A stretch of 64,000 nucleotides of DNA from Candidatus Aphodoplasma sp. (GCA_045592745.1 JAZNVH010000011.1:21864-85863); one strand, 5' to 3'. Counted from the first letter of the stretch, positions 175 through 18,700 are shown. The notes: generated by a model not told the origin, from the letters alone. Translations and numbers: made by a program.

Positions 175-222
175 TTATTATCCCCCTCAAAATAATTTTA
201 TTTATGTTAAAGATGTTACTAC

Positions 223-251: not shown

Positions 252-544
252 CGTCATGACAAATATTGTTGAGTTTTTTGTCGGCGTGGCCGTAAAAAAG
301 TACGTGTTACTATTAAATTGCACACATTAGCTATACCTAAATTGGTTATTATTAACACTTAAAAATACAAAAATGAAAAATATTTACAATGGAAAAATAA
401 AACAACCTGAAATAAGTTGACTTTTATGCTATATTATAATAAGATATAAATAATAATGGGTTTTTTGTACCCTTGTTATAAAAAACGTTTAAATATGGTG
501 ATTTGATTTGTAATTTTTGAAAAATTTATCATGGAGGGATAGTG

Positions 545-1603
545 ATGAAACCGCTTATTACGATTATTGTTCCTGTTTATAATACTGAGAAATATTTAGA
601 AGAGTGTCTTAACAGTATTTTTAATCAGACACTTAAAGATATTGAGGTAATATGTGTAAATGACGAAAGTCCAGATAATTCCCGCGAGATATTGCAAAGA
701 TTTTATGAAAAACATGATAATATGAGAATAATAGACCAGAAAAACAGTGGCGTTTCGATTGCGAGAAATAATGCGTTAAAACTAGCAAAAGCTCCATATA
801 TAATGTTTGTAGACAGCGATGATACAATTGGTACAAGGATATGTGAAACGGCGTATAAAAAAATGCAGGAGCATAATGCCGATGTGGTAATGTATTCCCA
901 TTCGCTTGTATACAATAATGCTATTCATCCTAGACAAGAACTTGGTGAACAGGAAAAGATATTTGAAGAGCAAGAGTGTCACAGTATTTTATACAGACGA
1001 TTTTTTGGGCTTTCAAGCAAGGAAATGGATATTATTGAACGACAGGATGCCCTAAGCCCGATATGGTCTAAGCTTTACAAAAAAAGCATTATTGAAGAAA
1101 ACAATATAGAGTTTTATGATATCAGAAAAATTGGCAGCTTTGAGGACGGACTTTTTAATCTTCAGTATTTTGGCTTTTGTAAAAAAGCAGTTTATCTTCC
1201 TGATTGTTTGTATTTTTACAGACGGGACAATCAAAACTCGGTTACTACTAAATACAGAGAAAATCTGCCTAAGCAATGGGACACGCTTTTTGAGTTAATA
1301 GGAGAAGAAATTGATAAAAACAACCTTGGCGATATGTTTCAAGAGGCTTTAAGCAACAGAATAGCGATATCATCAATCGGACTCGGACTAAACGCGATAG
1401 CAAAAAAATGCAATGTTTTTGCTCATATATCAATGCTTCATAACATTATTTCTAAAAAAGAATACCAAGAGTCAATAAAAAAAATGCGTTATAAGAATAT
1501 GCCTATTCATTGGAAACTTTTCTTCATATGTTGCAGATACAAGCTTTCGCTGTTTGTGGTTTTGCTTTTGTATGCGATGAATTATTTGAGAAGAATACGA
1601 TAA
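545..1603 (+). CDS. Glycosyltransferase family 2 (GT-A fold)
   Basis: ORF track 542-1603; the ATG at 545 lies 6 nt after GGAGGG (533-538). Motifs IIVPVYNTEKYLEECLNSIFNQT, NDESPD and the FVDSDD DxD are typical of GT2. Confidence 0.85.
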   Translation: MKPLITIIVPVYNTEKYLEECLNSIFNQTLKDIEVICVNDESPDNSREILQRFYEKHDNMRIIDQKNSGVSIARNNALKLAKAPYIMFVDSDDTIGTRICETAYKKMQEHNADVVMYSHSLVYNNAIHPRQELGEQEKIFEEQECHSILYRRFFGLSSKEMDIIERQDALSPIWSKLYKKSIIEENNIEFYDIRKIGSFEDGLFNLQYFGFCKKAVYLPDCLYFYRRDNQNSVTTKYRENLPKQWDTLFELIGEEIDKNNLGDMFQEALSNRIAISSIGLGLNAIAKKCNVFAHISMLHNIISKKEYQESIKKMRYKNMPIHWKLFFICCRYKLSLFVVLLLYAMNYLRRIR

Positions 1604-1626
1604 AAAACAGAAGGGACTATGCTATA

Positions 1627-2589
1627 ATGGAAAATATTTTGGTTTCAATAGTAATACCTGTTTACAATGGGGCAAATTATCTTGGTGAAGCGATTGACAG
1701 TGCGCTTGCCCAGACATATAAAAATATTGAGATAATAGTAGTAAATGACGGCTCAACAGATGATGGTGCAACCGAAAAGGTGGCACTTTCGTATGGCGAT
1801 AAAATTCGTTATTTTCACAAGGAAAACGGCGGTGTGTCATCGGCGCTTAATCTGGGTATCCGTGAAATGAAGGGAGAATATCTTTCGTGGCTTTCGCATG
1901 ATGACTTATATACTCCCGATAAAGTAGAAACGCAAATTAAGGATGTTCAGAAGTTAAAGGCTGACAACCCTGAAGAATATAAGCGCACAATGTTTTACTG
2001 TGGTGGTGGCTTTATAAATTCTAAAGGTGAGCACATAGAAAGAAAAACAAGGACCCTTCCAGATGGTTTTTATAAAGGCAATGATATGCTTTTGAAATTT
2101 TTTAAGGGTTATGGCATAGGTGGATGTGGGCTTCTTATACCGCGCGTTATGTTTGATGAAGTAGGGTATTTTAATGAGGATATGCGTTATATGCAGGATG
2201 TGTTTATGTGGGAGAAAGCATTTATCGCAGGATATAGCATATTTATAAACAACAAGGTTATGTCCATAACCCGCATCCATAATATGCAGACATCAACAAC
2301 GGGTAAAGCGTATGGTTTAAAAGACCGCGAAACTGTTGGTAAGTATCTTGCAGAGCATCTTAGAGGCATAAAATCTTCGGATGGCCAAAGCGTACTTACG
2401 CAGTATATGTTTTTATGCATGCGAAATAATTCCACAAACATAGGGAAGATGATATATAAAGATCTTGTTTTGCACAAAGATATCACATTAGCAGAAAAGA
2501 TAAAAACATATTTGATATATGCATATGGTTTTATGCGTAAGCGGTTGAGCAGCCTATACTATAAAGTAAGATTTGGCACAAAGAGGTGA
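1627..2589 (+). CDS. Glycosyltransferase family 2
   Basis: ORF track 1510-2589, but the ATG at 1627 gives the canonical GT2 N-terminus MENILVSIVIPVYNGANYLGEAIDSALAQTY. VNDGSTDD and SHDD motifs are present. The upstream extension overlaps the previous gene. Confidence 0.85.
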   Translation: MENILVSIVIPVYNGANYLGEAIDSALAQTYKNIEIIVVNDGSTDDGATEKVALSYGDKIRYFHKENGGVSSALNLGIREMKGEYLSWLSHDDLYTPDKVETQIKDVQKLKADNPEEYKRTMFYCGGGFINSKGEHIERKTRTLPDGFYKGNDMLLKFFKGYGIGGCGLLIPRVMFDEVGYFNEDMRYMQDVFMWEKAFIAGYSIFINNKVMSITRIHNMQTSTTGKAYGLKDRETVGKYLAEHLRGIKSSDGQSVLTQYMFLCMRNNSTNIGKMIYKDLVLHKDITLAEKIKTYLIYAYGFMRKRLSSLYYKVRFGTKR

Positions 2590-2595
2590 TTTTTT

Positions 2596-3699
2596 GTGAA
2601 AAAAATAGGGATACTCACTATTCATCATAACCAGAATTACGGAGCGGTTTTGCAGGCGTATGCTTTGCAGAAAAAACTTGAAACACTTGGTTATGATAGC
2701 GAGCTTATCAATTTTATTCCGACGAGCAGTGCACGTTCTATGCGCTTGTTTTCTACATCGCTTATAGAGAACATACGCACGGTATTGTTTTTGAAAAAAC
2801 GTATAATACGCCGCCAACGGTTTGTAGATTTTTTAAAAAAAAAGCACAAGTTGTCCAAAGAACCAATATATGATTATAATAACTTAAAAGAAGATGCTTT
2901 TGACTATGATGTTTATATAACCGGTAGCGATCAGACTTTTAATTTACTTTTGCGTGGAATGGAGCAGGAGCGAAAAATGTACTTCCTTCCGTTTGTAAAG
3001 GAGCACAAAAAAATATCGTATGCACCGAGTATGGGAGAAAGAATAGCTGCGCTCGACGAGCAAAAGATACTTTGGATAAAAAATGCGCTAAGCTCGTATG
3101 ATTCCCTTCTTGTAAGAGAAAAGGCGGCAGCGGATTTTATAGCAGGTCTAAATATCACGCCAAAGGCTCCCGAGGTGGTTTTAGATCCCACGCTGCTTCT
3201 TGACAGAAGTGATTATGATAAAATAGAAAAAAGAACAAAATACGAAAAAGGAAAATATATATTATTTTACAGCGTGTTGTCTGATTCGTGGGTTGTAAAA
3301 AAGGTGCAGAAAATTGCAAAGCAGCTTAATATGAAGGTTGTTACGCCTCATTGCATGAATCAGTTTGAGCTGTCTGCGGGATTTGTACGTGCAGAGGAGT
3401 GTGGACCCGAAGAGTTTATTTCTCTGGTAAAAAATGCGGCATTTGTATGTACGTCGTCCTTTCATGGAACGGTGTTTTCGCTCATTTATAATAAGCCGTT
3501 TGTGTCTTTTTTAATAGGAGAAGGAAACCGAATAGGCAGCTTGCTTGATACCGTAAATATGAGAAGCAGAGCAGTGCGTCAAAATGACGATGTTGATGCC
3601 TTAAAGCTTTTGGATATAGATTATACCGAGGCAAACAAACTGCTTGAAGATGCAAGAGAGCGTTCAAAAAATTTGCTTATAGAAGCAATAGGAGATTAA
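2596..3699 (+). CDS. Polysaccharide pyruvyl transferase family protein (paralog 1)
   Basis: GTG start after AGAGGTGA. Motifs shared with the 3702 and 10333 paralogs: NxNYGxxLQAYAL near the N-terminus, GSDQxFN, DPTLLL, SSFHGTVFS. This pattern is typical of the PF04230 pyruvyltransferase family. Confidence 0.8.
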   Translation: MKKIGILTIHHNQNYGAVLQAYALQKKLETLGYDSELINFIPTSSARSMRLFSTSLIENIRTVLFLKKRIIRRQRFVDFLKKKHKLSKEPIYDYNNLKEDAFDYDVYITGSDQTFNLLLRGMEQERKMYFLPFVKEHKKISYAPSMGERIAALDEQKILWIKNALSSYDSLLVREKAAADFIAGLNITPKAPEVVLDPTLLLDRSDYDKIEKRTKYEKGKYILFYSVLSDSWVVKKVQKIAKQLNMKVVTPHCMNQFELSAGFVRAEECGPEEFISLVKNAAFVCTSSFHGTVFSLIYNKPFVSFLIGEGNRIGSLLDTVNMRSRAVRQNDDVDALKLLDIDYTEANKLLEDARERSKNLLIEAIGD

Positions 3700-3701
3700 T
3701 A

Positions 3702-4823
3702 ATGAAAAAAGTAGCGATAATAACATTTCATGCGGCACATAATTATGGTTCTATGCTTCAGGCGTATGCTTTGCAGACGACAGTTGAAGGATTGGGTTGT
3801 GAATGTGACGTTATTAATTTCAGAACAGACAGACAAAAAGACTTATATACTGTGTTTACCAAGAGAAAAGGGATAAAGTATCTGTTAAAAAATGCATCGC
3901 ATTTACTATATTACAAATTATTAAAAGGCAAATATGACAAATTCGAAAGTTTTTTGGATAAACACATTAAACTGACAGATGCGCAGTATCAGTCATTAGA
4001 AGGGCTTGAGAGTGCTGATTTTGACTATGATTACTATATCTCGGGCAGCGACCAGATATGGAATCCTGTTCCCGCTGATTTTGACTGGGCATATTATCTG
4101 CCGTTTGTAAAAAATGCAAAACGCATAGCGTATGCGCCAAGCTTTGGACCATTCTCGAGTGTAGGTGATGAGAAAACAAAAGAGCAGCTTTCTAAGTATT
4201 TGCGCGATTATGATTATATAAGCGTGCGAGAGAAAGGCTCGAAAAAAAATGTTAAAGAGCTGATAAACAAAGATGTACAAGTTGTTTTAGACCCGACATT
4301 ATTATTGGAAAAAGAAAAATATGATGATCTGGTATGCAAAGAAACGCTTGTCAATGGAGAATTTATATTTTTATATACTTTGTTTGCTACGCCGGAAATT
4401 ATTCAGGTCGCGAAATATTTTTCGAAACAGTTAAAGCTTCCGATAGTTGTATCAAATTTTTCAAATCAATATGATTGCATCAATCCTTTTACGAAATGTT
4501 TTTCAAGCGGACCAAAAGAAATGCTGTGGTTTATAAAAAATGCCAAGCTTGTGTTGGCATCATCATTTCACGGCACGGTGTTTTCTATTATATATAATAA
4601 ACCATTTTATGCTATAGGCGGAAATAGGGATGCAAGAATATCTACACTGCTTGATATTACGGAGCTTAGCGAGAGAAGTGTTGACAAAAACAATATGCAA
4701 AGAAAAACAAACAATGTTTTTGACATAAACTTTCATGAAGCAATGCAAAAGCTTGACAAGGAAAGACAAAAAAGCATGGATTATTTACGAAAGGCGCTTG
4801 ATATAGATGGAGATTTGCGTTAA
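3702..4823 (+). CDS. Polysaccharide pyruvyl transferase family protein (paralog 2)
   Basis: MKKVAIITFHAAHNYGSMLQAYALQ, GSDQIWN, DPTLLL, SSFHGTVFS. It starts 2 nt after the previous stop. Confidence 0.8.
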   Translation: MKKVAIITFHAAHNYGSMLQAYALQTTVEGLGCECDVINFRTDRQKDLYTVFTKRKGIKYLLKNASHLLYYKLLKGKYDKFESFLDKHIKLTDAQYQSLEGLESADFDYDYYISGSDQIWNPVPADFDWAYYLPFVKNAKRIAYAPSFGPFSSVGDEKTKEQLSKYLRDYDYISVREKGSKKNVKELINKDVQVVLDPTLLLEKEKYDDLVCKETLVNGEFIFLYTLFATPEIIQVAKYFSKQLKLPIVVSNFSNQYDCINPFTKCFSSGPKEMLWFIKNAKLVLASSFHGTVFSIIYNKPFYAIGGNRDARISTLLDITELSERSVDKNNMQRKTNNVFDINFHEAMQKLDKERQKSMDYLRKALDIDGDLR

Positions 4824-5919
4824 AGAAAAATGTACAGGATGCAGTGCATGTGCAACTGTGTGCCCGAACGCCTGTATCACAATGGCAGAAGATGAAATCG
4901 GACATTTTATACCTGTTATAGATGAAGAAAAGTGCACAAATTGCGGTGCGTGTCAAAAGATGTGTCCAAACAATAAACAAATAGAAAGAAACGAGTCTGC
5001 TGCGGCTTATGCTGCGGCAAGTGCTGATGACAAGGATTATCAGACAAGCAGCTCGGGTGGTGCGGCATCGGTCTTTTCGAGATATATTATTGAAAATGGC
5101 GGTGTGGTGTATGGCTGTACAGGAACAAAGGGCTATGATATATGCCATATAAGAGTCGATAATATAGATGAGCTTGCAAAACTGAAGGGGTCAAAGTATG
5201 TTGAAAGCAGAATGGGCAACACTTTTGAGCTTATAAAAAATGATTTACAAGACGACAAAACAGTCTTGTTTATAGGAACGCCTTGTCAGTGCGCAGGTGC
5301 AAAGAGTCTTTTTTCAAAATATGATAACTTTTATGCGGTTGATTTAATCTGTCACGGTGTACCGCCTCAAAAGCTTCTAAAAGAGCATTTGTCAGGAAAA
5401 ATAAAGCAAGAGCCTGATGAGATAAGATTCAGAGAAGGGGCAGATTTTTGTTTTAAGGCAATAAAAAATGGCAAGGTTATAAACCAATACAGTAATTTGT
5501 TTGATTTGTATTATATAGGTTTTTTCAAAAGCCTTTACTATAGAAACTCCTGTTACAATTGTAGCTATGCCAACAGCAAAAGATGCTCTGACATAACGAT
5601 AGGAGATTTTTGGGGGCTTGGAAAGAGTGAAATTGCTCAAAAGCATAAAAATGGTGTGTCAGTAATTTTGATAAATACAAAAAAAGGCGAGCAGCTTTTT
5701 GAAAACTGCCAAAATGAGTTTTTGTATGAACAGCGTGATGTTGACGAAGCTGTGAATGGAAATGCTCAACTGAGGCGTCCAAGCTTTAAGCATAAAAACA
5801 CGGAAAAGTTTCGAAGAATTTATCCAAAGCTCGGTTTTAAAAAAGCTGCGGGAAGATGTCTTATTATAAACAGAATAAAATATTTGATATTGGCAGTATA
5901 TAACAAAGTCAGAAACTGA
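4807..5919 (+). CDS. Coenzyme F420 hydrogenase/dehydrogenase beta-subunit-like Fe-S flavoprotein (FrhB/FdhB family), copy 1
   Basis: Two ferredoxin motifs, CTGCSACATVCP and CTNCGACQKMCP, then SSSGG, GTPCQ, DLICHGVPP and GDFWG blocks shared with ORF 12991. Overlaps the upstream pyruvyltransferase by 17 nt. Confidence 0.75.
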   Translation: MEICVKEKCTGCSACATVCPNACITMAEDEIGHFIPVIDEEKCTNCGACQKMCPNNKQIERNESAAAYAAASADDKDYQTSSSGGAASVFSRYIIENGGVVYGCTGTKGYDICHIRVDNIDELAKLKGSKYVESRMGNTFELIKNDLQDDKTVLFIGTPCQCAGAKSLFSKYDNFYAVDLICHGVPPQKLLKEHLSGKIKQEPDEIRFREGADFCFKAIKNGKVINQYSNLFDLYYIGFFKSLYYRNSCYNCSYANSKRCSDITIGDFWGLGKSEIAQKHKNGVSVILINTKKGEQLFENCQNEFLYEQRDVDEAVNGNAQLRRPSFKHKNTEKFRRIYPKLGFKKAAGRCLIINRIKYLILAVYNKVRN

Positions 5920-5929
5920 GGTTTTATAA

Positions 5930-7024
5930 ATGGCGTTAGCGATAACTTATTTATTATTTGTGTTTATTTGTTATCTTATGGATAATAACACAAACCAAAA
6001 ATACAATTTAATACAGCGTGACAGAAAGCTATATTTGACGTTTCATTTTTTGTTTATTATCTTTTTCACGCTTGTTTTTGCACTGCGGGCAGAGTCGGTA
6101 GGTTCTGATACACAGCGTTATGTTGTGGGATTTAAGACATCGCCATATAGAACATACGAGAGCATATTTAATGCCGACGGAGAAAAAAAAGAGTATTTAT
6201 ATCTTGTGCTTACAAAGATTATAGCTACATATACAGATAGCATTATTGTATTTTTCGGTGTTTACGGTGCGTTGTTTACTTTTTCTTATGGGAACATGGT
6301 CCATAAGCATTCGGATAATTATTTTGTAAGCTATATTATGCTTGTTGCGATGTATTTTTCGTTTATTATATCAGGAATGCGTCAGCTTGCAGCGATGAGT
6401 ATACTTTTGATGTCATACGGATTTATAGTAAGAAAGAAGCTTGTGCCATTTTTGTTATGCGTAGCGGTGGCGTACTATTTTCATAATTCAGCTATTATAT
6501 TTTTGCTTGCATATCCTGTGGCGCATATGAAATGGGGCAAAGGACAGTTTGTTATTTTAGCGGTATGTATCATTATGGCGTATTTAATGCCGGGGGTAGC
6601 TACCAAGGTGGTTTTTGAGTGGCTTGCGTGGGACAGATTTGAGACGTATGAAGCTCACAGCGCTACTTTGACGTCGAGTGGATTTATTATTAAAATAGCC
6701 ATATTGGCATTTAATCTGTTTCACTACAAAGGAACGGTTGAAAAAAACAGTGAAAATCTTAAGTTTTATAACTTGTCAATATTTGGTACCTCGCTTCAGG
6801 CTTTTACTGTCGTAATGTCACAGGCGTTTAGAATGAGTATGTATTTTAGTATCTTTGATACTATTCTTACGGCAAATGTGCTTGCAGCTTTAAGAACTGA
6901 TACAAATTTTAAAGCAAAGAATAAAGCTTTTGTATATATTGGCGTTATATCACTTTTGATAGTGTATTATTTGTTTATTTCAACGCCTGTTGATTATAAA
7001 ATGAGTATATCTTTTTGGGAATAA
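5930..7024 (+). CDS. EpsG-family polytopic membrane protein (Wzy-type repeat-unit polymerase candidate)
   Basis: About 10 hydrophobic segments. It has the VGSDTQRY motif characteristic of the EpsG family and sits in a glycan locus. Confidence 0.7.
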   Translation: MALAITYLLFVFICYLMDNNTNQKYNLIQRDRKLYLTFHFLFIIFFTLVFALRAESVGSDTQRYVVGFKTSPYRTYESIFNADGEKKEYLYLVLTKIIATYTDSIIVFFGVYGALFTFSYGNMVHKHSDNYFVSYIMLVAMYFSFIISGMRQLAAMSILLMSYGFIVRKKLVPFLLCVAVAYYFHNSAIIFLLAYPVAHMKWGKGQFVILAVCIIMAYLMPGVATKVVFEWLAWDRFETYEAHSATLTSSGFIIKIAILAFNLFHYKGTVEKNSENLKFYNLSIFGTSLQAFTVVMSQAFRMSMYFSIFDTILTANVLAALRTDTNFKAKNKAFVYIGVISLLIVYYLFISTPVDYKMSISFWE

Positions 7025-7041
7025 GGAGGCGATGTATAGCA

Positions 7042-8175
7042 ATGAAGGCGGCAATGATTGCGGGAAGCGGCGGAAGCGGCGGCTATATGGCATATATAAA
7101 GGGCTTGCTCGGCGAAATGAGTGAGCACGATGTTGTTTTGTTTTGCACAAAAGAGCTTGAAGAAAAAGTTAAGGACAATTGTAAAAACGTGAAAATTTAT
7201 ACAACGCCGTATGCAAAAGAGCGGGGCATAGATATATTTTTAAACAAACCTCTGTCAAAACAGATGATTGACGCTGTTAATGAATTTGAGCCGGATGTTG
7301 TGTTTTTTACACCAGGCTGGATACGAAAAGGGCTTGAGAAATATCCTAACATCATGGTTTTACATAATCAGCTGTATGTTGATGATAAGACGCTGTTTAA
7401 AACTATCAGCAAAAAAACCTTTTTAACTATGATGGGTTTTCGTCACAGTGTGCGCCGCTCGATGAAAAAAGCGGACGGGGTAATATTTTTAAGCGATAAG
7501 TCAAAATTATGTGCAGACAAAAACAATATTTCTTACAAAAAAGGGTGTGTTATTCCCTTCGGTTTACCAAGCGAGAGCTTTTGTGCTCCGGCTAAGAGAG
7601 CAGAAAGTACAGGCGAGATAAAGCTTTTATATGTATCTGCATTTTTTGAATATAAAAAGCATGATGGAGTATTTTATGCAATAAGCAATTTAAAGAAAAA
7701 AGGATATGATTTGAAGATTACACTGATTGGCAAGGGGCCGTCTTACAGAGAAGAATTTTTAAAAAATCTTTCAAAAGAACTTGACATAGAAGAAAATATT
7801 GAATTTACAGGGTGGAAAAATCACGATGAGGTGCTTTTGGCAATAGATGATACAGACATATTTGTATATCCAAGTTCGATTGAGTCAACGGGGCTTGGTG
7901 TTATGGAGGCGATGGCGAGGGGGGCGTGTATTGCAAGCTCGGACATGTCATGCATGAGCGAGGTTTTAGAGGATGCGGGCGTTTACTTTAACCCCGATGA
8001 TTACAAACAGATAGAACAGACGCTTGAAAAGCTCATAAACGACAAAACCCTTAGAGAAATGCTTTCTCATAAAGCCTTTGAATACTCGAAAAAGTACTCG
8101 TGGGAAGTGGCAGCAAAAAAGCATTATGATTTCTTTGAATCTTTCGCACATCAGGGAAGGAGTTACAAAAAATGA
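7042..8175 (+). CDS. Glycosyltransferase family 4 (GT-B fold)
   Basis: ORF track 7015-8175; the ATG at 7042 follows AAGGAGG (7023-7029). C-terminal block FVYPSSIESTGLGVMEAMARGACIASSD is a typical GT4 E-x7-E region. Confidence 0.8.
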   Translation: MKAAMIAGSGGSGGYMAYIKGLLGEMSEHDVVLFCTKELEEKVKDNCKNVKIYTTPYAKERGIDIFLNKPLSKQMIDAVNEFEPDVVFFTPGWIRKGLEKYPNIMVLHNQLYVDDKTLFKTISKKTFLTMMGFRHSVRRSMKKADGVIFLSDKSKLCADKNNISYKKGCVIPFGLPSESFCAPAKRAESTGEIKLLYVSAFFEYKKHDGVFYAISNLKKKGYDLKITLIGKGPSYREEFLKNLSKELDIEENIEFTGWKNHDEVLLAIDDTDIFVYPSSIESTGLGVMEAMARGACIASSDMSCMSEVLEDAGVYFNPDDYKQIEQTLEKLINDKTLREMLSHKAFEYSKKYSWEVAAKKHYDFFESFAHQGRSYKK

Positions 8176-9290: not shown

Positions 9291-9323
9291 GAAAATATTA
9301 AAAATTGAAGGAGGTTGAAAAAT

Positions 9324-10328: not shown

Positions 10329-10332
10329 AACG

Positions 10333-11487
10333 ATGAAAAAAATAGGAATTGTTTCATTGTATTATAAAAATAGAAATTACGGCGGACTGTTGCAGGCATA
10401 TGCACTAACCAAATTTATTTCAAAAACTGGATACGATGTTGAGCAACTGTGCTGGGAGTTTTTTGCGCCAAAATTTGTTGCAGAAAAAAGAATATTTAAA
10501 TTAAAAAAAATATTTAGATATATAAAAACTATTATCAATATTTATTTTATGAAGTGGTGTCACTTTTATTATGACAAAAAATTTGCTTTGAGGAATTGCG
10601 CGTTTGAAGAATTCCAAAATAAAATTTCACATTCGAAGAAGATATATAATAAAAATAATGTTGCAGATGTTTCAAATGACTATGATGCAATTATAATTGG
10701 AAGTGATCAGGTTTGGAATATAAGCTGGTATAATGATGAGTATTTTTTAAATGATGTTTCGTCATCTGTGTACAAGTTTTCGTATGCGGCAAGTATGCCT
10801 GATATCAATATAACAGAAGAACAAAAGGAAATGGTTCGCGCCAGTTTGAAAAATTTTTCGGATATTTCTGTAAGAGAGCAATCAACGGCAGATTTTTTAT
10901 CAGAGTTGATAGGGGAAAATATAAAATGTGTTGTTGATCCTACGATGCTATTGGAGCGTGAAGATTGGGATAACATAAGCAGCGAACGGTTGATTAAAGA
11001 GAAGTATATTTTCTGCTATTTTCTTGGTAAGGACAGAAATATCAGGAAGCAAGCTAAAATTTTTGCAAAAAAAGTAGGATTAAAAATTGTGACGTTGCCA
11101 CATGTGGGTGGAATTAATCGTGAGGACATGACTTTTGGAGATTACAAGTTATTTGATATAGGTCCGCAAGATTTTGTAGCACTGATTAAACATTCAGAAT
11201 ATGTTCTGACAGATAGTTTTCACGCAGCAGTTTTTTCGAATATATACGAAACAAAATACTTTGTTTTTGATAGAAAAGGCATAAGCATGAACGAAAGAAT
11301 TATTACTTTGCTGAATATGTTTAATTCAAGGGAAAGGTTTTTAAAGCCCGATGCAAAAAAAATGTATGAAATGAAAGATATTCCTGTGACGGATAATATC
11401 GACAAATATAAAATTGTGCGCGATGACTCTATTAAGTTTTTGCTTGGCAATTTGGGAAAATGGGAGAAAGTGACAAATGGCAATTAA
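10333..11487 (+). CDS. Polysaccharide pyruvyl transferase family protein (paralog 3)
   Basis: MKKIGIVSLYYKNRNYGGLLQAYAL, GSDQVWN, DPTMLL, DSFHAAVFS. Same motif set as paralogs 1 and 2, but more divergent. Confidence 0.75.
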   Translation: MKKIGIVSLYYKNRNYGGLLQAYALTKFISKTGYDVEQLCWEFFAPKFVAEKRIFKLKKIFRYIKTIINIYFMKWCHFYYDKKFALRNCAFEEFQNKISHSKKIYNKNNVADVSNDYDAIIIGSDQVWNISWYNDEYFLNDVSSSVYKFSYAASMPDINITEEQKEMVRASLKNFSDISVREQSTADFLSELIGENIKCVVDPTMLLEREDWDNISSERLIKEKYIFCYFLGKDRNIRKQAKIFAKKVGLKIVTLPHVGGINREDMTFGDYKLFDIGPQDFVALIKHSEYVLTDSFHAAVFSNIYETKYFVFDRKGISMNERIITLLNMFNSRERFLKPDAKKMYEMKDIPVTDNIDKYKIVRDDSIKFLLGNLGKWEKVTNGN

Positions 11488-13003
11488 CCAATTAAAATCA
11501 GGAGTCATAATATCATATGCGACGCAGGCAGTTCACATTTTAAGCGGCATAATATATACCCCTGTAATGCTGAGACTTTTGGGGCAAAGTGAATATGGGC
11601 TTTATCAGCTGGTTGGCTCTGTAATATCTTATTTAAGTCTTTTAACATTTGGTTTTGGTGCAAGCTATGTAAGATTTTATTCAAGGTATAAAGTTAATAA
11701 TGATGAAACAGGTATAGCCAAGTTAAATGGCATGTTTTTTGTGATTTTTTCTGTCATAACCTTGATATGTTTGATATGTGGTGCATTTTTAACCTTTAAC
11801 GTTAAAAATATTTTTGGAAATGGCTTAACAATTGCCGAGCTTGAAAAATCCAAAATTTTGATGGCAATGATGGCTTTTAATATGGCGGTTGTTTTGCTTG
11901 GAAATGTTTTCACCAATATCATAACTGCTAACGAAAGATTTTTCTTTCCAAGAGTCTTGACTTTGCTGACTGCCCTGCTTGATCCAATTCTTACACTTCC
12001 AGTATTGTTTTTTGGTTTTGGTTCGGTTGGATTGGTATGCATAAAGACATTGTTGACAGTAGCGGTATTTATTATGAATGTTGTTTTCTGTTTGAGAAAA
12101 TTAGAGACAAAATTTTCTTTTCAGAGTTTTGATTTCTCGCTATTAAAGGAAATGTCTGTATTTACTGCTATTATATTTATAAATTTGATTGTGGATCAGA
12201 TCAATTGGAGTGTGGACAAATTTTTGCTTGGGAGAATAATAGGCACAACCGCTGTTGCATTGTATGGAGTGGCAGGCAATCTTAATACTATGTACATGAG
12301 CTTTTCAACCGCGGTGATGAGTGTTTTTGTTCCAAAAGTAAATATGCTTGTTGCCAAAGAAAAAGATAATAAAGATCTGACATATCTTTTTACAAGAGTA
12401 GGACGAATTCAGTTTATTATTATAGGATTAATACTATCAGGTTATGTATTGTTTGGCCGTGAATTTATAGCTGTATGGGCAGGCAACGGTTATGAAGAGT
12501 CATATATTATAGGCTTGTTTTTGATGATTCCGATTACTATCCCTCTCATACAAAATCTTGGGGTAGAAATACAAAGGGCAAAAAACAAACACCAAGTGCG
12601 TTCGGTAGTATATTTATTTGTTGCGCTGTCAAATATTTTTCTTAGCATCTTTTGTATAAAAAAATGGGGTGCTTCTGGTGCAGCTGTAGGTACAATGATA
12701 TCACTTTTATTGGGCAACGGATTGTTTATGAATGTATACTACCACAAAAAAATTGGCCTTGATATAATTTATTTCTGGAAACAAATTGCAAGGGTTATGC
12801 CTGCGCTCTCAATTACGGTTGTATTAGGAATTGCCATAAAGGCATTTATCGGCTGTAATAGCATTATACAGCTTGGGGTAAATATAGTTTTGTATTCTGT
12901 CATTTATATTGTGTCGTTTTGGTTTATGGGTATGAATAAAGAGGAGAAAGCGCTTATAGAAGGACCGCTTAATTCGATAGGAGCAAAAATATGCAAAAGA
13001 TAA
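11477..13003 (+). CDS. Wzx-type oligosaccharide flippase (MOP superfamily polysaccharide biosynthesis protein)
   Basis: 508 aa and highly hydrophobic (about 12-14 TM segments). The N-terminus LKSGVIISYATQAVHILSGIIYTPVMLRLLGQSEYGLY is typical of the Wzx/PST family. Overlaps both neighbours. Confidence 0.8.
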   Translation: MAINQLKSGVIISYATQAVHILSGIIYTPVMLRLLGQSEYGLYQLVGSVISYLSLLTFGFGASYVRFYSRYKVNNDETGIAKLNGMFFVIFSVITLICLICGAFLTFNVKNIFGNGLTIAELEKSKILMAMMAFNMAVVLLGNVFTNIITANERFFFPRVLTLLTALLDPILTLPVLFFGFGSVGLVCIKTLLTVAVFIMNVVFCLRKLETKFSFQSFDFSLLKEMSVFTAIIFINLIVDQINWSVDKFLLGRIIGTTAVALYGVAGNLNTMYMSFSTAVMSVFVPKVNMLVAKEKDNKDLTYLFTRVGRIQFIIIGLILSGYVLFGREFIAVWAGNGYEESYIIGLFLMIPITIPLIQNLGVEIQRAKNKHQVRSVVYLFVALSNIFLSIFCIKKWGASGAAVGTMISLLLGNGLFMNVYYHKKIGLDIIYFWKQIARVMPALSITVVLGIAIKAFIGCNSIIQLGVNIVLYSVIYIVSFWFMGMNKEEKALIEGPLNSIGAKICKR

Positions 13004-14145
13004 CACAGTTAAAAAATTGCAGTGGCTGTCATGCGTGCTATAATGCATGTCCAGTAGGGTGCATTAGTATGGAGTATGACGGCGAAGGATTTTTATATCC
13101 AAAGATAGACAAAGAAAAATGCATTAACTGCGGCAAATGTGAAAAGGTATGCCCTGTTATAAACGAGTATAAAGATGGCAAAAAAGGCACAGCATATGCG
13201 TGTATAAACAAGGATGAGTCTGTTCGCGAAAAAAGCTCGTCAGGTGGGGTTTTCACTTTGATTGCTGAGTATGTACTTGATAATGGCGGTGTTGTGTTTG
13301 GTGCGGCATTTGATGAAGAGTTTAATGTGGTGCACACAAAGGTTGACAACAAAGAAGATTTGGACAAGTTAAGAGGTTCAAAATATGTTCAAAGCAGTAT
13401 TGGCAGCGCGTTTAAACAGGCAAAAGATTGTCTTGAAGAAGGCAGATTGGTGCTATTTACGGCAACGCCTTGTCAGATAAGTGGTTTAAAAGCATTTTTG
13501 GGGTGTGAGTATGACAATCTTATAACGCAGGATATAATTTGTCATGGCGTACCTTCTCCAAAGGTGTGGCAAAAATACATAGCTTTTCGGGAGAAAAGTG
13601 CCGGGGCGAAAACCCGGAGAATATTTTTCAGACATAAAAGATATGGCTGGAAAATATTCTCCGTATTATTTGAATTTTCAAATAATACGGAGTATATAAA
13701 AATCCTTTATGATGATTTTTACATAAGGGGATTTTTAGCCAATCTGTACCTTAGACCATCATGCTATGATTGTCATTCAAAATCTGTCTTTCGCCAAAGC
13801 GATATAACCTTAGCAGATTTTTGGGGAATAGAAAATGTTATGAGTCAAATGGATGATAACAAGGGCACGTCGCTTGTGCTTGTAAATTCGTCCAAAGGCA
13901 AACAAGTTTTTGAAAAAATATTTGAGAAGATGAATTATAAGATGGTTGATATTGATGAGGCTTTAAAATACAATTCTTCGGCATATAAAAGTGTAGATAT
14001 GCCGAAAAAGCGAAGTGTGTTTATGAAACTTATAGATAAATATGAGTTTGATGTACTTATAAAAAAATGTATACCATCAAGGCCTTTTCGAAAGGTTTTT
14101 CGCAAGATAAAAAACATAGTTAAAAGGATGTGTTCACATGTTTAA
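12991..14145 (+). CDS. Coenzyme F420 hydrogenase/dehydrogenase beta-subunit-like Fe-S flavoprotein, copy 2
   Basis: CSGCHACYNACP and CINCGKCEKVCP motifs, then SSSGG, ATPCQ, DIICHGVPSP and ADFWG. Paralogous to 4807-5919. Confidence 0.75.
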   Translation: MQKITQLKNCSGCHACYNACPVGCISMEYDGEGFLYPKIDKEKCINCGKCEKVCPVINEYKDGKKGTAYACINKDESVREKSSSGGVFTLIAEYVLDNGGVVFGAAFDEEFNVVHTKVDNKEDLDKLRGSKYVQSSIGSAFKQAKDCLEEGRLVLFTATPCQISGLKAFLGCEYDNLITQDIICHGVPSPKVWQKYIAFREKSAGAKTRRIFFRHKRYGWKIFSVLFEFSNNTEYIKILYDDFYIRGFLANLYLRPSCYDCHSKSVFRQSDITLADFWGIENVMSQMDDNKGTSLVLVNSSKGKQVFEKIFEKMNYKMVDIDEALKYNSSAYKSVDMPKKRSVFMKLIDKYEFDVLIKKCIPSRPFRKVFRKIKNIVKRMCSHV

Positions 14146-15172
14146 AAACAAAACATTATTAATCACAGGCGGAACGGGTTCGTTTGGAAATGCGGTGCTA
14201 AACAGATTTTTAGATACCGATATAGCCGAGATACGAATTTTTTCGCGCGATGAAAAAAAACAAGACGATATGCGTCACGAATATCAGGTAAGGTTCCCTG
14301 AGCTTAGTGGTAAAATCAAGTTTTATATAGGTGACGTGCGTGACTTACAAAGCGTAAAGAATGCTATGCACGGTGTTGATTATATTTTCCATGCGGCAGC
14401 ACTTAAGCAGGTGCCCTCGTGCGAGTTTTTTCCGATGGAAGCGGTAAAAACAAATGTAATTGGAACAGATAACGTGCTTACAGCAGCCATTGATACGGGT
14501 GTTAAAAAGGTTATCTGCCTTTCAACAGACAAGGCGGCATATCCTGTAAACGCAATGGGTACGGCAAAGGCGATGATGGAAAAGGTTGCCGTTGCAAAAT
14601 CGAGAACTGTATCGCCCGATAAGACAACTATATCCTGCACACGCTATGGTAATGTTATGTGTTCAAGAGGTTCGGTAATTCCACTCTGGATTGAGCAGAT
14701 AAGAGAAGGTAAGCCAATAACTATCACAGAGCCGTCGATGACACGCTTTATTATGTCGCTTGAAGAGGCGGTTGAGCTTGTTTTATTCGCTTTTGAAAAT
14801 GCCGAAAGCGGCGATATTATGGTGCAAAAAGCGCCTGCTTGTACGATTGAGGTTTTGGCGCAGGCTGTAAAGGAATTGTTTGATAAAGAAAGCAAGAGCG
14901 AAATAAAGGTGATAGGAATTCGTCACGGAGAAAAGCTTTATGAAACGCTTCTTACAAATGAAGAGTGTGCAAACGCAATTGATATGGGGGACTTTTATCG
15001 CGTTCCTGCAGACAAGCGTGACCTTAATTATGATAAATATTTTAAAACAGGCGATACCGAGAGAAATAAGTTAACGGAATTTAATTCTAATAACACAGAC
15101 TTGCTCTGCGTAGAAGCGGTTAAAGCAAAAATGCTTGAGCTTGAATATATCCGAAATGAACTGGAGAAATAA
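14138..15172 (+). CDS. fnlA: UDP-N-acetylglucosamine 4,6-dehydratase/5-epimerase (FnlA/CapE type)
   Basis: MFKNKTLLITGGTGSFGNAVLNRFLDTDIAEIRIFSRDEKKQDDMRHEY closely matches the CapE/FnlA/WbjB N-terminus. It is followed by capF- and capG-type genes. Confidence 0.9.
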   Translation: MFKNKTLLITGGTGSFGNAVLNRFLDTDIAEIRIFSRDEKKQDDMRHEYQVRFPELSGKIKFYIGDVRDLQSVKNAMHGVDYIFHAAALKQVPSCEFFPMEAVKTNVIGTDNVLTAAIDTGVKKVICLSTDKAAYPVNAMGTAKAMMEKVAVAKSRTVSPDKTTISCTRYGNVMCSRGSVIPLWIEQIREGKPITITEPSMTRFIMSLEEAVELVLFAFENAESGDIMVQKAPACTIEVLAQAVKELFDKESKSEIKVIGIRHGEKLYETLLTNEECANAIDMGDFYRVPADKRDLNYDKYFKTGDTERNKLTEFNSNNTDLLCVEAVKAKMLELEYIRNELEK

Positions 15173-15173
15173 A

Positions 15174-16322
15174 ATGAATATTCTTGTAACGGGTGCCAAG
15201 GGTTTTGTTGGCAGAAATCTTATTGAAAATTTAAAAAATATACGCGATGGAAAGGATAAGACGAGAGAAAATCTGCCTGATATCGAGATAATGGGTTACG
15301 ACATAGATTCCACGCCAGAGCAGCTTGACGAATTTTGTAAAAAAGCCGACTTTGTATTTCATCTTGCGGGCGTTAACCGCCCCGAAAATGAAGAGGAGTT
15401 TATGAAGGGCAATTTTGGCTTTACGTCGCTTCTTCTTGATACGCTAAAAAAATATAATAATAAAGCTCCGGTTATGATTTCTTCGTCAATTCAGGCAGCG
15501 CTTGACAATCCATATGGCCGCTCGAAAAAAGCGGGAGAGGATTTGATATTTGATTATGGCAAAGAAAACGGAGTAAAAACGCTCGTTTATCGTTTCCCGA
15601 ATGTATTTGGAAAATGGTGCAGACCAAATTATAACAGTGCAGTTGCGACATTTTGCTATAACATTTCTCACGATTTGCCAATTACGGTCAATGATGAAAG
15701 TTATATGATGACACTTGTTTACATAGACGATGTTGTGTGTGAGCTTTTAAACGCACTTGAAGGAAAAGAAAACGCAGATGGCGAATATTGCAAGGTAGCA
15801 GTAGAGCATAAAATCACTCTTGGCGAGATTGTACGGCTTCTTTATTCTTTCAAAGAGTCAAGACAAACGCTAAAAGTGCCTGATATGACAAAAAATTCTT
15901 TTTCCAAAAAGTTATATTCAACCTATCTTTCATACCTTGAGCCTTGTGATTTTTCGTACAAGCTTAAAATGAACGTTGATAACAGAGGAAGCTTTACCGA
16001 AATATTAAGAACTATAAATGCGGGACAATTCAGCGTTAATATTTCAAAGCCCGGCATAACGAAAGGACAGCACTGGCACAACACAAAGAATGAAAAGTTT
16101 TTGGTTGTTTCGGGAAAAGGCCTTATTCAGCTCAGAAAAATCGGTACAAATGAAGTCATAAACTATGAGGTAAGCGGAGAAGAGCTGACAGTTATTGATA
16201 TGATTCCGGGTTATACGCATAATATAATAAATTTATCCAAGACAGAGGATCTGGTTACATTTATGTGGTGTAATGAATGCTTTGACCCGCAAAAACCAGA
16301 CACATTTTTTGAAGAGGTGTAG
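15174..16322 (+). CDS. fnlB: UDP-2-acetamido-2,6-dideoxy-hexose epimerase/reductase (FnlB/CapF type, SDR + C-terminal cupin)
   Basis: ORF track 15135-16322; the ATG at 15174 gives MNILVTGAKGFVGRNL (Rossmann fold) one nt after the fnlA stop. The C-terminal HWHNTKNEKFLVVSG is a cupin block as in CapF. Confidence 0.85.
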   Translation: MNILVTGAKGFVGRNLIENLKNIRDGKDKTRENLPDIEIMGYDIDSTPEQLDEFCKKADFVFHLAGVNRPENEEEFMKGNFGFTSLLLDTLKKYNNKAPVMISSSIQAALDNPYGRSKKAGEDLIFDYGKENGVKTLVYRFPNVFGKWCRPNYNSAVATFCYNISHDLPITVNDESYMMTLVYIDDVVCELLNALEGKENADGEYCKVAVEHKITLGEIVRLLYSFKESRQTLKVPDMTKNSFSKKLYSTYLSYLEPCDFSYKLKMNVDNRGSFTEILRTINAGQFSVNISKPGITKGQHWHNTKNEKFLVVSGKGLIQLRKIGTNEVINYEVSGEELTVIDMIPGYTHNIINLSKTEDLVTFMWCNECFDPQKPDTFFEEV

Positions 16323-16325
16323 AAA

Positions 16326-17471
16326 ATGAGCAAAATAAAACTTATGACAATAGTTGGAACAAGGCCGGAGATAATCCGTTTATCCGAGGTTATCAAGGCG
16401 TGTGACAAATATTTTGACCAAATTTTAGTGCATACAGGGCAAAATTATGACTATACACTAAATCAGGTGTTCTTTGACGATCTGGGACTTCGAGAGCCTG
16501 ATTATTATCTTGATGCTGTAGGAAACAGCCTTGGCGAAACAATTGGAAACATTATTGCAAAGTCATATGATTTGATGGAAGTAACAAAGCCTGACGCACT
16601 TCTTATTTTGGGAGATACAAACTCATGCCTAAGCGCAATTGGCGCAAAGCGTCTACATATTCCGATTTTTCATATGGAGGCGGGTAACCGCTGTAAAGAT
16701 GAGTGTCTTCCGGAGGAAACAAACAGAAGAATCGTCGATATTATATCGGATGTCAACCTTGCATATTCGGAGCATGCGCGCCGTTATCTTCATGAGTGCG
16801 GACTTCCAAAGGAGCGCACATATGTAACGGGTTCGCCGATGGCAGAGGTTTTAAGAGCTAATCTTGAAAGCATAAAGGCGAGCGATATTTTAACAAGACT
16901 GGGTCTTGAGAAAAAGAAGTATATTCTTTTGTCTGCCCACAGAGAAGAAAATATAGACAACGAAAAGAACTTTTTCTCGCTTATGAACGCCGTAAATGCG
17001 ATGGCGCAAAAATATGATATGCCCATACTTTATTCGTGTCATCCGAGAAGCAAAAAGCATATCGAGGCAAGAGGTTTTGAGTTTGACAAAAGAGTTATTC
17101 GTCATGAGCCGCTCGGCTTTCACGACTACAATAATCTGCAGATGAATGCTTTTTGTGTCGTTTCTGACAGCGGAACTCTTCCTGAGGAAAGCAGCTTCTT
17201 TTTATCAATAGAAAACCCAATCCCTGCTGTATGTATAAGAACATCGACCGAGCGCCCTGAGGCTCTTGATAAGGGTAATTTTGTTCTTGCCGGAATAACA
17301 ACCAAGCAGGTGCTTGGGTCGGTTGATATTGCAGTTAAGATGAACGAAAATGGCGAGCTTGGTGTGCCGACTCCTGACTACACAGATGAAAATGTATCTA
17401 CAAAGGTCGTAAAGCTTATTCAAAGCTATACCGGAATCGTAAACAGAATGGTATGGAGGAAAGATATATAA
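16326..17471 (+). CDS. fnlC: UDP-N-acetylglucosamine 2-epimerase, non-hydrolysing (FnlC/CapG type)
   Basis: LMTIVGTRPEIIRLSEVIKACDKYFDQILVHTGQNYDY matches the CapG/WbjD/FnlC family. It is the third gene of the UDP-L-FucNAc triad. Confidence 0.9.
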   Translation: MSKIKLMTIVGTRPEIIRLSEVIKACDKYFDQILVHTGQNYDYTLNQVFFDDLGLREPDYYLDAVGNSLGETIGNIIAKSYDLMEVTKPDALLILGDTNSCLSAIGAKRLHIPIFHMEAGNRCKDECLPEETNRRIVDIISDVNLAYSEHARRYLHECGLPKERTYVTGSPMAEVLRANLESIKASDILTRLGLEKKKYILLSAHREENIDNEKNFFSLMNAVNAMAQKYDMPILYSCHPRSKKHIEARGFEFDKRVIRHEPLGFHDYNNLQMNAFCVVSDSGTLPEESSFFLSIENPIPAVCIRTSTERPEALDKGNFVLAGITTKQVLGSVDIAVKMNENGELGVPTPDYTDENVSTKVVKLIQSYTGIVNRMVWRKDI

Positions 17472-17477
17472 ACAACA

Positions 17478-18650
17478 ATGGATATCTATATTAACTATCT
17501 TATAAGTCTTTTAAAAAGCGCAATTCTTGGCACAGAGCCTTCAAAAATACCTGAGGAAACAGAACTTGAAGAGCTTTTTAAAACGGCAAAAAGACATTCG
17601 GTTGCAAATGTTTTATATAATTCTCTTGCAAAGCTTGACATAGCTGACAAAAAGAAGCTTTCCTCGTTTGAACAGGAGTATGCAAGAGCGTTGTATCTTG
17701 AGGTAAAGCAGCAGTACTATCTTGAAATGCTTTGTGAGGCACTTGAAAAGAATAAAATACGTCACGTTCTTATGAAGGGCATAGTTATAAAGCCGTTATA
17801 TCCATCGCCTGACATGAGGCTTTCTGGCGACCTTGATATATTTGTTGACGAAGAAAACTGCCCGAGAGTTAAAAAGATAATGGATGAGCTTGGCTATGCG
17901 ACAGAGCTCTTTAATGAAAGTGTGGGACATGATGAGTATCTTATAGATAACGCTGTCAGAGTGGAGATACACAGAAGGCTTGTCTCAAACAAATGCCCGT
18001 GGGATAAAAAATGTCAGGAGATTACACAAAGAGTTGTTTTGGATGAGCCGTATCAGTACAGATACAAAATGAGTAATGAGGATTATTATCTGTATATGAT
18101 CGCGCATATTGCAAAGCACATGAAATACTCCGGCGCAGGTATAAAAATGGTGCTTGATGTGTGGGTGTTTTTGCGCCATTATGCCGATAAGCTTGATATG
18201 GATATTTTGAATGAACGCTTAAAATACTGTGGTCTTGACAAATTTGATGCAAATGTAAGAGCCCTTGTTGATTATTGGTTTAATGATAAAGAGGCAGATA
18301 AGCTTACAAAAAAGCTTGCCGATTACATTGTGCAAAGCGGCAGCTTCGGAACGCATAAGCAACTTGTTGCAGGTGAAATGGCAAAAAATGCTGCAGGAAC
18401 TCAAAGCCGCGTTATAGGTACACTAAGTTATTATGTACAAATATTTTTTATGCCGTATAATCAAATGAAGGAAAGCTATCCTGTTTTGAAAAAGATGCCT
18501 GTACTTTTGCCGTTTTTGTGGGTATACAGGGCGTGCAGAACAATATTTTTCAAAAAAGAAAAAGCAGAAAAAATAAAAAACAGATACAAAGATGTCGACA
18601 TGCAATATGGAAAAGAGCTTGTTGACTTTAAAAAACAAATAGGATTATAA
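17478..18650 (+). CDS. Uncharacterised nucleotidyltransferase-fold protein (NTP_transf_5 / PF14907-like)
   Basis: 390 aa. The RLSGDLDIFVDEEN motif (G-x-x-D-x-D, pol-beta-like nucleotidyltransferase signature) and the downstream helical region resemble the uncharacterised PF14907 family. It is the last gene of the locus. Confidence 0.6.
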   Translation: MDIYINYLISLLKSAILGTEPSKIPEETELEELFKTAKRHSVANVLYNSLAKLDIADKKKLSSFEQEYARALYLEVKQQYYLEMLCEALEKNKIRHVLMKGIVIKPLYPSPDMRLSGDLDIFVDEENCPRVKKIMDELGYATELFNESVGHDEYLIDNAVRVEIHRRLVSNKCPWDKKCQEITQRVVLDEPYQYRYKMSNEDYYLYMIAHIAKHMKYSGAGIKMVLDVWVFLRHYADKLDMDILNERLKYCGLDKFDANVRALVDYWFNDKEADKLTKKLADYIVQSGSFGTHKQLVAGEMAKNAAGTQSRVIGTLSYYVQIFFMPYNQMKESYPVLKKMPVLLPFLWVYRACRTIFFKKEKAEKIKNRYKDVDMQYGKELVDFKKQIGL

Positions 18651-18659
18651 ATAATAAAA

Positions 18660-18688
18660 AAGAAGTGTATCAAACTGATACACTTCTT
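18660..18688. terminator. Bidirectional rho-independent terminator between the glycan locus and the Toprim gene
   Basis: Perfect 13-bp stem AAGAAGTGTATCA / TGATACACTTCTT with loop AAC, an A-run upstream and T-rich sequence downstream. Confidence 0.8.
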
Positions 18689-18700
18689 TAATTTACATTA

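Follow-up and report, generated by a model that had tools for sequence, protein, structure and literature searches.

What does a gene cluster make when it carries three members of the polysaccharide pyruvyl-transferase family (PF04230, here PvT1 to PvT3) together with two Fe-S flavoproteins of the FrhB type, in an organism that also has wall proteins with S-layer homology (SLH) domains? The cluster occupies positions 545-18650 of a 64,000-nt stretch of Candidatus Aphodoplasma sp. (GCA_045592745.1 JAZNVH010000011.1:21864-85863), hereafter the window, to whose full length all coordinates refer. An initial annotation, made from the sequence alone, proposed that it supplies either the pyruvylated ligand of the SLH proteins or an S-layer glycan. 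Our analysis favours a different answer: a single 16-gene operon for a Wzx/Wzy-dependent heteropolysaccharide, placed in a strain-variable island of low GC content in an uncultured, anaerobic, spore-forming Clostridium of gut type and of Oscillospiraceae/Ruminococcaceae affinity. We give this reading, including the pathway proposed below, a probability of about 0.55. As a glycan locus the cluster is an ordinary member of the Wzx/Wzy type. The part worth following is a conserved, sometimes fused module of a PvT and an FrhB-like protein, with a probable role in the synthesis of lactyl-ether sugars.

The gene content of the operon and the pairing of PvT with FrhB-like genes are established with high confidence. 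Pfam profile searches covered the window open reading frames (ORFs) of at least 120 aa, and NCBIfam equivalog models were applied to selected proteins. The genes of immediate concern are the following.

2596-3699, + strand: PvT1, PF04230 polysaccharide pyruvyl-transferase family, without a reductase of its own (PF04230, 113.7 bits)
3702-4823, + strand: PvT2, PF04230 protein of module 1, with a 17-nt overlap with FrhB-like1 (PF04230, 134.2 bits)
4807-5919, + strand: FrhB-like1, 2x[4Fe-4S] ferredoxin plus FrhB/FdhB flavin domain, putative reductase of module 1 (PF04432, PF04422, Fer4)
10333-11487, + strand: PvT3, PF04230 protein, first gene of a PvT-Wzx-FrhB cassette, module 2 (PF04230, 115.2 bits)
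11477-13003, + strand: Wzx-type flippase, overlapping PvT3 by 11 nt and FrhB-like2 by 13 nt (PF01943, 52.7 bits; PF13440, 48.1 bits)
12991-14145, + strand: FrhB-like2, putative reductase of module 2, 34% identical to FrhB-like1 (PF04432, PF04422, Fer4)

When a pair is defined as a PvT and an FrhB-like gene that are fused, adjacent or one gene apart and co-directional, two are found in the window, PvT2/FrhB-like1 and PvT3-Wzx-FrhB-like2. This association extends well beyond the window. Eighty genome loci fetched through their FrhB-like proteins, from Clostridia, Bacteroidales, Erysipelotrichaceae, Collinsella, Elusimicrobia, Melainabacteria, Sphaerochaeta and other lineages, contain 99 FrhB-like genes, 83 of which (84%) have a PvT within two genes. 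Eight are fusions with a PvT, 62 are directly adjacent to one and co-directional, and 13 are separated from it by one gene, which is Wzx-like in six cases, as it is between PvT3 and FrhB-like2. The background is given by the other genes of the same loci, 10.6% of which neighbour a PvT. In the converse sample, built from PvT relatives in metagenomes, 46 PvTs have full flanks, and for 31 of these an FrhB-like gene is fused or lies at most two genes away. Of eleven PvT/FrhB fusions, eight have the order PvT-FrhB and three the reverse order, FrhB-PvT, pointing to repeated independent fusion. Both arrangements of the window are also seen on plasmid pNP95 of Pseudobutyrivibrio xylanivorans (PGAP annotation), where the gene standing between PvT and FrhB is a 500-aa unannotated one. 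The window Wzx shares 65% identity with the flippase that occupies the equivalent PvT-Wzx-FrhB position of a related locus, L165 (related loci are designated by L and a number). The order PvT, flippase-sized gene, FrhB-like gene recurs in unrelated genomes (window 10333-14145, L165 11629-15383, L164 16211-19128 and several of L016-L078), which suggests that such flippases are co-inherited with the modified repeat unit and are perhaps specific for it.

A ketal can be formed from phosphoenolpyruvate (PEP) without any redox step; a reductase coupled so closely therefore implies a product other than a ketal. The competing explanation sees PvT1, PvT2 and PvT3 alike as ketal-forming pyruvyltransferases of the ordinary kind and gives the FrhB-like proteins another job, such as a sugar redox step or an unrelated supply of electrons. 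Every characterised PF04230 enzyme named in the 2019 review of pyruvylation (PMC6801904), namely CsaB, WcfO and Pvg1p, makes ketals, and the review mentions neither reductases nor F420 nor lactyl ethers. The existence of PvTs of this group with no reductase nearby also fits ketal synthesis, and the connection to lactyl ethers is a correlation only. The repeated independent fusions in both orders and the 84% linkage within two genes argue instead for a joint reaction of the two proteins, and the capsule data below point the same way. We consider ketal synthesis by all three enzymes unlikely.

Those data come from Klebsiella. Table 1 of PMC6856556 assigns O-lactyl sugars to exactly three of 77 capsule types, on glucuronic acid (GlcA) in K22 and K37 and on glucose in K66; the same table gives a pyruvate ketal for none of these three and for 30 other types. 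For K22, the title of the structure paper specifies 4-O-[(S)-1-carboxyethyl]-GlcA. The supplement of PMC4616057 lists a 'pyruvyl transferase', wclZ, and a 'nitroreductase' (HG127) only in K22 and K37, and a 'pyruvyltransferase', wcqF, together with the sole 'coenzyme F420 hydrogenase' (HG203) of the 79 loci only in K66. The link from these genes to lactyl groups is stated neither in that table nor in that supplement. The three types that combine a PvT with a type-specific redox gene are therefore those with lactyl ethers and no ketal, a distribution that speaks against the ketal explanation. The Klebsiella loci resemble the window in being of Wzx/Wzy type and in carrying a PF04230-annotated 'pyruvyl transferase' together with a type-specific redox protein. 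They differ in being Gram-negative group-1 loci with wza-wzb-wzc and wbaP/wcaJ, which the window lacks, and the partner in K22 and K37 is of the nitroreductase and not of the FrhB type.

The proteins of the window have the features expected of their families. PvT1-3 all score above the PF04230 gathering cut-off of 25.3 bits, are mutually 30-36% identical, and their alignments show the motifs GSDQ, R(E), DPT and (F)H to be invariant or nearly so. The AlphaFold model of PvT2 (predicted local distance difference test score, pLDDT, of 92.5) has a generic GT-B-type fold; a phmmer search of PvT2 against PDB sequences gave no match. The initial annotation had proposed a phylogeny of these enzymes. 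In the tree that was run, with E. coli WcaK for comparison, the PvTs are set apart from WcaK by a long branch (11-16% identity) and all three group with the FrhB-associated set; FrhB-linked and lone PvTs are not separated, so that membership of the clade gives no prediction of the chemistry of PvT1. The nearest relative of PvT2 is the FrhB-adjacent PvT of L002, and that of PvT3 is a PvT lying one gene away from an FrhB gene. WcaK of colanic acid, WcfO of Bacteroides fragilis polysaccharide A, GumL and EpsO share with the window PvTs the PF04230 family, location in a Wzx/Wzy locus and decoration of a repeat unit, but they are stand-alone ketal enzymes for which no redox partner is described (PMC6801904), in contrast to the reductase-paired PvT2 and PvT3.

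FrhB-like1 and FrhB-like2 score 74.9 and 75.9 bits with PF04432 and 26.5 and 42.5 bits with PF04422, respectively. FrhB-like1 carries two CxxCxxCxxxC motifs and four more invariant Cys, with three predicted Fe-S sites. Its structural model (pLDDT 90.7) gives its best Foldseek hits to the F420-reducing subunits 8rja_E and 8riu_B, the amino-terminal half of Fsr, FrhB and HCAR (5dqr), with E-values of 6e-15 to 1e-10 for 8rja_E, Fsr, FrhB and HCAR, and with 14-20% identity to solved members. The likeness to the FrhB/FdhB family thus lies in the fold and in the Fe-S plus flavin architecture. The difference is that proteins of the window type occur singly or as PvT fusions and not as part of a hydrogenase or dehydrogenase complex. 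HCAR, the reductase of the chlorophyll pathway, is a member of the family that reduces an organic substrate. Neither window protein reaches any curated equivalog model (FpoF, 42-45 bits for a cut-off of 475), and to our knowledge F420 is not expected in hosts belonging to the Clostridia and Bacteroidales. The coding sequence of FrhB-like2 contains, at 13659-13692 (residues 223-234), an inverted repeat of 15 bp without mismatches around a loop of 4 nt, CTCCGTATTATTTGA ATTT TCAAATAATACGGAG; the chance expectation for such repeats in a stretch as long as the window is about 4e-4.

Lactic-acid ether sugars are present in several bacterial capsules, O-antigens and exopolysaccharides, among them the polysaccharides of E. 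coli O124, O164 and O58, of Shigella dysenteriae types 3 and 5 and of Butyrivibrio (a literature search aimed at the Butyrivibrio exopolysaccharide yielded no relevant paper). Outside peptidoglycan, we found no enzyme assigned to their formation in the searchable literature. In peptidoglycan synthesis, MurA transfers an enolpyruvyl group to UDP-N-acetylglucosamine and MurB reduces it to the lactyl ether of N-acetylmuramic acid. Two further precedents are the nitroreductase-like domain of FbiB, which reduces the enolpyruvyl group of dehydro-F420-0, and BciB, a vinyl reductase of the FrhB family. We put forward, at even odds, the hypothesis that PF04230 proteins and FrhB-like proteins form a widespread, so far uncharacterised two-enzyme system of anaerobes that makes O-lactyl (1-carboxyethyl) ethers on lipid-linked repeat units, a non-homologous counterpart of MurA/MurB. 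The parallel is one of analogy only and lies in the proposed sequence of an enolpyruvyl ether followed by flavin-dependent reduction of its C=C bond. The folds are unrelated (GT-B-like PF04230 versus MurA; FrhB-type Fe-S flavoprotein versus MurB), the substrate in the window is presumably lipid-linked and not a UDP-sugar, and the electron donor is probably ferredoxin and not NADPH.

If this is correct, many 'pyruvyl transferase' genes of gut Clostridia and Bacteroidales make no pyruvate ketals, and the genes annotated as 'coenzyme F420 hydrogenase beta subunit' in non-methanogens acquire a function. For gut and rumen anaerobes, polysaccharide loci could then be interpreted more accurately, with a carboxyethyl ether in place of a ketal. 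The idea would be directly testable in the genetically tractable Klebsiella K66.

The modules are embedded in a continuous + strand series of ORFs from 545 to 18650. The remaining genes and the elements that border the operon are as follows.

176-544, + strand: divergent AT-rich intergenic region of about 370 nt, presumed promoter/leader (from reading of the sequence)
545-1603, + strand: GT2a glycosyltransferase (PF00535, 117.7 bits; Shine-Dalgarno GGAGGG upstream of the ATG at 545)
1627-2589, + strand: GT2b glycosyltransferase (PF00535, 106 bits)
5930-7024, + strand: EpsG-type (Wzy-like) repeat-unit polymerase (PF14897, 124.7 bits)
7042-8175, + strand: GT4a glycosyltransferase (PF00534, 100.1 bits)
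8172-9290, + strand: GT4b, GT4-like protein with a weak family signal (PF13692, 28.9 bits for a cut-off of 27), ATGA overlap with GT4a
9324-10328, + strand: GT2c glycosyltransferase (PF00535, 132.6 bits)
14138-15172, + strand: FnlA-like UDP-N-acetylglucosamine 4,6-dehydratase/5-epimerase (PF02719, 360.9 bits)
15174-16322, + strand: FnlB/WbjC/Cap5F-like reductase (PF14667, PF01370)
16326-17471, + strand: FnlC/WecB-type UDP-sugar 2-epimerase (PF02350, 267.8 bits)
17478-18650, + strand: PF14907 (NTP_transf_5) protein, last gene of the operon (161.5 bits)
18659-18689, no strand assigned: hairpin with a 14-bp stem, located where the PF14907 and RNase M5 genes converge (terminator scan)

With starts chosen by domain boundaries and ribosome-binding sites, the 15 junctions range from an overlap of 17 nt to a gap of 33 nt, and the junctions quoted in the initial annotation (4807/4823, 8172/8175 with ATGA, 11477/11487, 12991/13003 and 14138/14145) are exact. 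Its picture of one co-transcribed Wzx/Wzy glycan operon with an N-acetyl-L-fucosamine (L-FucNAc)-type pathway and PEP-dependent acidic decorations is supported, and Pfam bears out each gene family that it named. Its count of 17 genes has to be lowered to 16, the number to which its own list adds up; the gaps are too short for another gene. Upstream, matches to sigma-70-like promoters are weak only (for example 417-445, 9 of 12 positions), and an Rfam scan of the window, leader region included, detected no RNA element. The gene preceding the operon lies on the - strand, with its amino terminus at 1-174, and its translated amino terminus reads as SpoIVA. The hairpin at 18659-18689 is a probable bidirectional terminator marking the end of the operon.

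The FnlA-, FnlB- and FnlC-like genes follow each other in that order, with gaps of 1 and 3 nt and the epimerase directly downstream. The best model for the FnlA-like protein is TIGR04130 FnlA, at 524.7 bits and below the cut-off of 730 bits (PseB gives 320.9 bits); the FnlB-like reductase reaches 395.9 bits with NF047837, under the cut-off of 500 bits, and the FnlC-like protein passes TIGR00236 (216.8 bits for a cut-off of 210.15). The three families, their order and their tight packing recall Cap5E/F/G of Staphylococcus aureus and WbjB/C/D of Pseudomonas aeruginosa, which are FnlABC systems for UDP-L-FucNAc. The difference is that the window FnlA and FnlB stay under their equivalog cut-offs, so that the product would be L-FucNAc or a related 6-deoxy-L-N-acetylhexosamine. 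PF14907 is a family of uncharacterised nucleotidyltransferases; a gene of this family also closes two related loci that otherwise differ, L001 (3869-5041) and L167/L168 (18182-19342), each time near an FnlA-like gene.

Drawn throughout from family assignments, the pathway would begin with undecaprenyl phosphate primed by a phosphoglycosyl transferase (PGT) encoded elsewhere. The five glycosyltransferases would assemble a repeat unit of about six sugars, including an L-FucNAc-type sugar from the FnlABC-like genes, and the three PF04230 enzymes would use PEP to place acidic three-carbon groups on the lipid-linked unit in the cytoplasm. PvT2 and PvT3 are proposed to attach an enolpyruvyl group to one of the sugar hydroxyls in this unit, and the neighbouring FrhB-type Fe-S flavoproteins to reduce its C=C bond to an O-lactyl (1-carboxyethyl) ether with electrons from a low-potential donor such as ferredoxin. 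The window would then hold two lactyl-ether modules, PvT2-FrhB-like1 and PvT3-Wzx-FrhB-like2, the latter built around the flippase gene. PvT1 could be a true ketal enzyme or could share FrhB-like1. The decorated unit would be flipped by Wzx and polymerised by EpsG. We infer the lactyl-ether chemistry at about even odds; which donor supplies the electrons, which sugars act as acceptors and where the polymer finally resides (capsule, exopolysaccharide or wall polymer) are inferences as well.

Several points weigh against this scheme. The literature searched gave no biochemical or structural data on any member of a PvT-FrhB pair, and the sample of genome loci was selected on FrhB-like genes. About a quarter of the PvTs of this group lack a nearby reductase, so that the group is not uniformly reductase-dependent; of the 13 unlinked PvTs in the converse sample, about three have a redox gene of another kind within the four closest genes on the same strand (nitroreductase, FAD_binding_4 and divergent FrhB, each a single case). 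The homology of K66 wcqF and its 'F420 hydrogenase' partner to the window proteins is suggested by annotation names alone, and the adjacency of the two genes by consecutive homology-group numbers. The pathway is also incomplete here: the scanned window ORFs of at least 120 aa include no initiating PGT (PF02397 or PF00953), and the window gives no match to a chain-length regulator (Wzz), a CapB-type kinase or a LytR_cpsA_psr (LCP) ligase. The initiating transferase is presumably encoded elsewhere in the genome, since PGTs are present in L165 and L167/L168. A published statement linking PvT-FrhB pairs to lactyl groups was not found, and the literature search turned up nothing else of relevance than the Klebsiella capsule survey and the review of pyruvylation; subscription journals were thinly covered, and an earlier description is possible.

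Among 44 proteins encoded next to lone PvTs (L092-L159), four carry a TPP_enzyme_N domain; nitroreductase, FAD_binding_4 and HpcH/HpaI aldolase neighbours occur once each. Genes for further PEP- or pyruvate-derived decorations may lie beside PvTs of this group.

The operon stands in a low-GC island between spoIVA on one side and rnmV-mreB-fabZ-rpoBC on the other, with a GC content of 0.32-0.37 as against 0.41-0.46 around rpoBC. Related loci display extensive shuffling of its cassettes. L165 is syntenic in a mosaic manner: GT2, GT2b (67% identical), PvT1 (55%), PvT2 (55%), FrhB1 (61%), EpsG, GT4, PvT, Wzx, FrhB2 (51%) and FnlA, preceded 5' of the cassette by genes for PglC-like PGT, PglD-like and PglE-like proteins that the window does not have. 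L002 has GT2b, PvT2, FrhB1, EpsG and GT4a, and PvT1 is missing; L167/L168 have GT2b-PvT1 apart from PvT2-FrhB, and their PF14907 gene at the end. Orthologues of PvT1 accordingly sit within PvT-PvT-FrhB cassettes in L163 and L165, and in L167/L168 at a distance from any FrhB gene. GT2b accompanies PvT genes, being 67%, 56% and 55% identical to the GT2 directly 5' of the PvT in L165, L002 and L167. The closest locus in the genome collection is 61% identical, and FrhB-like1 has a 95% identical relative in a metagenome. Because of this shuffling and the low GC content, we interpret the locus as a variable surface-polysaccharide island and not as the source of a conserved essential wall polymer. 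Exact-sequence look-ups with PvT3 and FnlA gave no record, and those with FabZ and the 95% identical FrhB-like1 relative led to no more than two short contigs of a single metagenome. That metagenome, ERZ15610166, contains two contigs (L163 and L001) from a near relative in which the layout is the same, 92.5% identical over 1-6287 and 97.9% identical over 13612-25568. The 3' part and the rnmV-mreB-fabZ-rpoB region of this relative are thus closer to the window than the 5' cassette, which diverges faster or was exchanged.

Could the locus nevertheless provide the pyruvylated secondary cell-wall polymer (SCWP) to which the window SLH proteins would be anchored by binding of SLH domains to the ketal? 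The SLH proteins reported by the initial annotation are present (31730-35041, 35132(35207)-38035 and 56637-59240 on the - strand). The organism has at least three, with signal peptides and SLH motifs of the TRAE/TYEQ type, and such real SLH proteins with typical motifs make it very likely that it possesses a pyruvylated wall polymer. An assignment of this polymer to the locus would agree with its PEP-dependent transferases, with PvT1 having no dedicated reductase, with the missing initiating transferase, as expected if a housekeeping enzyme of TagO type did the priming, and with the FnlC-like epimerase, which scores above the WecB cut-off and might in principle be a source of UDP-ManNAc (UDP-N-acetylmannosamine). 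The resemblance to the CsaB/SCWP system of Bacillus anthracis and Paenibacillus alvei comprises the PF04230 superfamily, the PEP-dependent modification of a lipid-linked unit and the occurrence in Firmicutes with SLH proteins. It does not extend further. PvT1, PvT2 and PvT3 score 17.7, 38.6 and 24.5 bits with the CsaB equivalog TIGR03609, far under its cut-off of 213.1 bits, which vindicates the caveat of the initial annotation that its pyruvyltransferases are not CsaB-like, and no other curated NCBIfam pyruvyltransferase model matches them. The profile searches that it had proposed for the operon proteins confirmed the families and gave no CsaB match above the cut-off. No tagO (PF00953), tagA-type or LCP gene was found in the window. 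The nearest SLH gene starts at 31730, 13 kb downstream of the operon, with rnmV, mreB, fabZ, rpoB, rpoC and pyrG intervening; by comparison, csaB of P. alvei and B. anthracis lies within an SLH/S-layer gene cluster (PMC6801904). Two of the three PvTs are coupled to a reductase, so that their product is probably not the 4,6-ketal recognised by SLH domains, and the PvT-FrhB module, being common also in Bacteroidales and in further lineages of the genome sample, is not specific to SLH-bearing Firmicutes. A low-GC, mosaic and strain-variable island also fits a variable capsule or exopolysaccharide better than an essential anchoring polymer. The proposed SLH ligand function is thus unsupported, and we judge it quite improbable. 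Proximity to SLH genes was rejected as functional evidence; a PF04230 gene near SLH proteins does not count as evidence of an SLH ligand.

The second proposal of the initial annotation, an O-glycan attached to S-layer or other SLH proteins, fares worse. The host is a Firmicute with large SLH proteins, and Wzx-dependent protein glycosylation is known in other bacteria. On the other side, neither the locus nor the rest of the window encodes an O-oligosaccharyltransferase or an O-antigen ligase (Wzy_C), the EpsG polymerase points to a polymer and not to a defined short glycan, and a genetic link to the SLH genes is absent. We regard this proposal, which is likewise unsupported, as very improbable and retain the Wzx/Wzy heteropolysaccharide with lactyl-ether modules as the preferred reading.

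Two of the SLH proteins, of 1103 and about 940 aa, are encoded in tandem at 31730-38035, directly 3' of pyrG, and have no Pfam domain outside their SLH regions. Just downstream of this pair, on the opposite strand (38144-39283), lies a gene for a protein with InlB B-repeat/Flg_new domains. An RpiB-like ORF at 39406-39897 (- strand) matches positions 46-105 of the 138 of LacAB_rpiB, together with DUF3666, and may be truncated at the amino terminus or mis-started. Two neighbouring proteins at 50031-52673 have PG_binding_1 domains, in three copies and in one copy, and no further recognised domain.

The remainder of the window has a housekeeping character, with RNase M5, MreB, FabZ, RpoB, RpoC, PyrG, MutS2, a D,D-carboxypeptidase, a two-component system and the anaerobic NrdD with its activase. 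The placement of the host among uncultured Clostridia follows from PyrG, which is 96% identical to a protein of a metagenome-assembled genome named "Ruminococcaceae/Oscillospiraceae bacterium" and about 57-58% identical to proteins of Acetivibrio and Ruminiclostridium.

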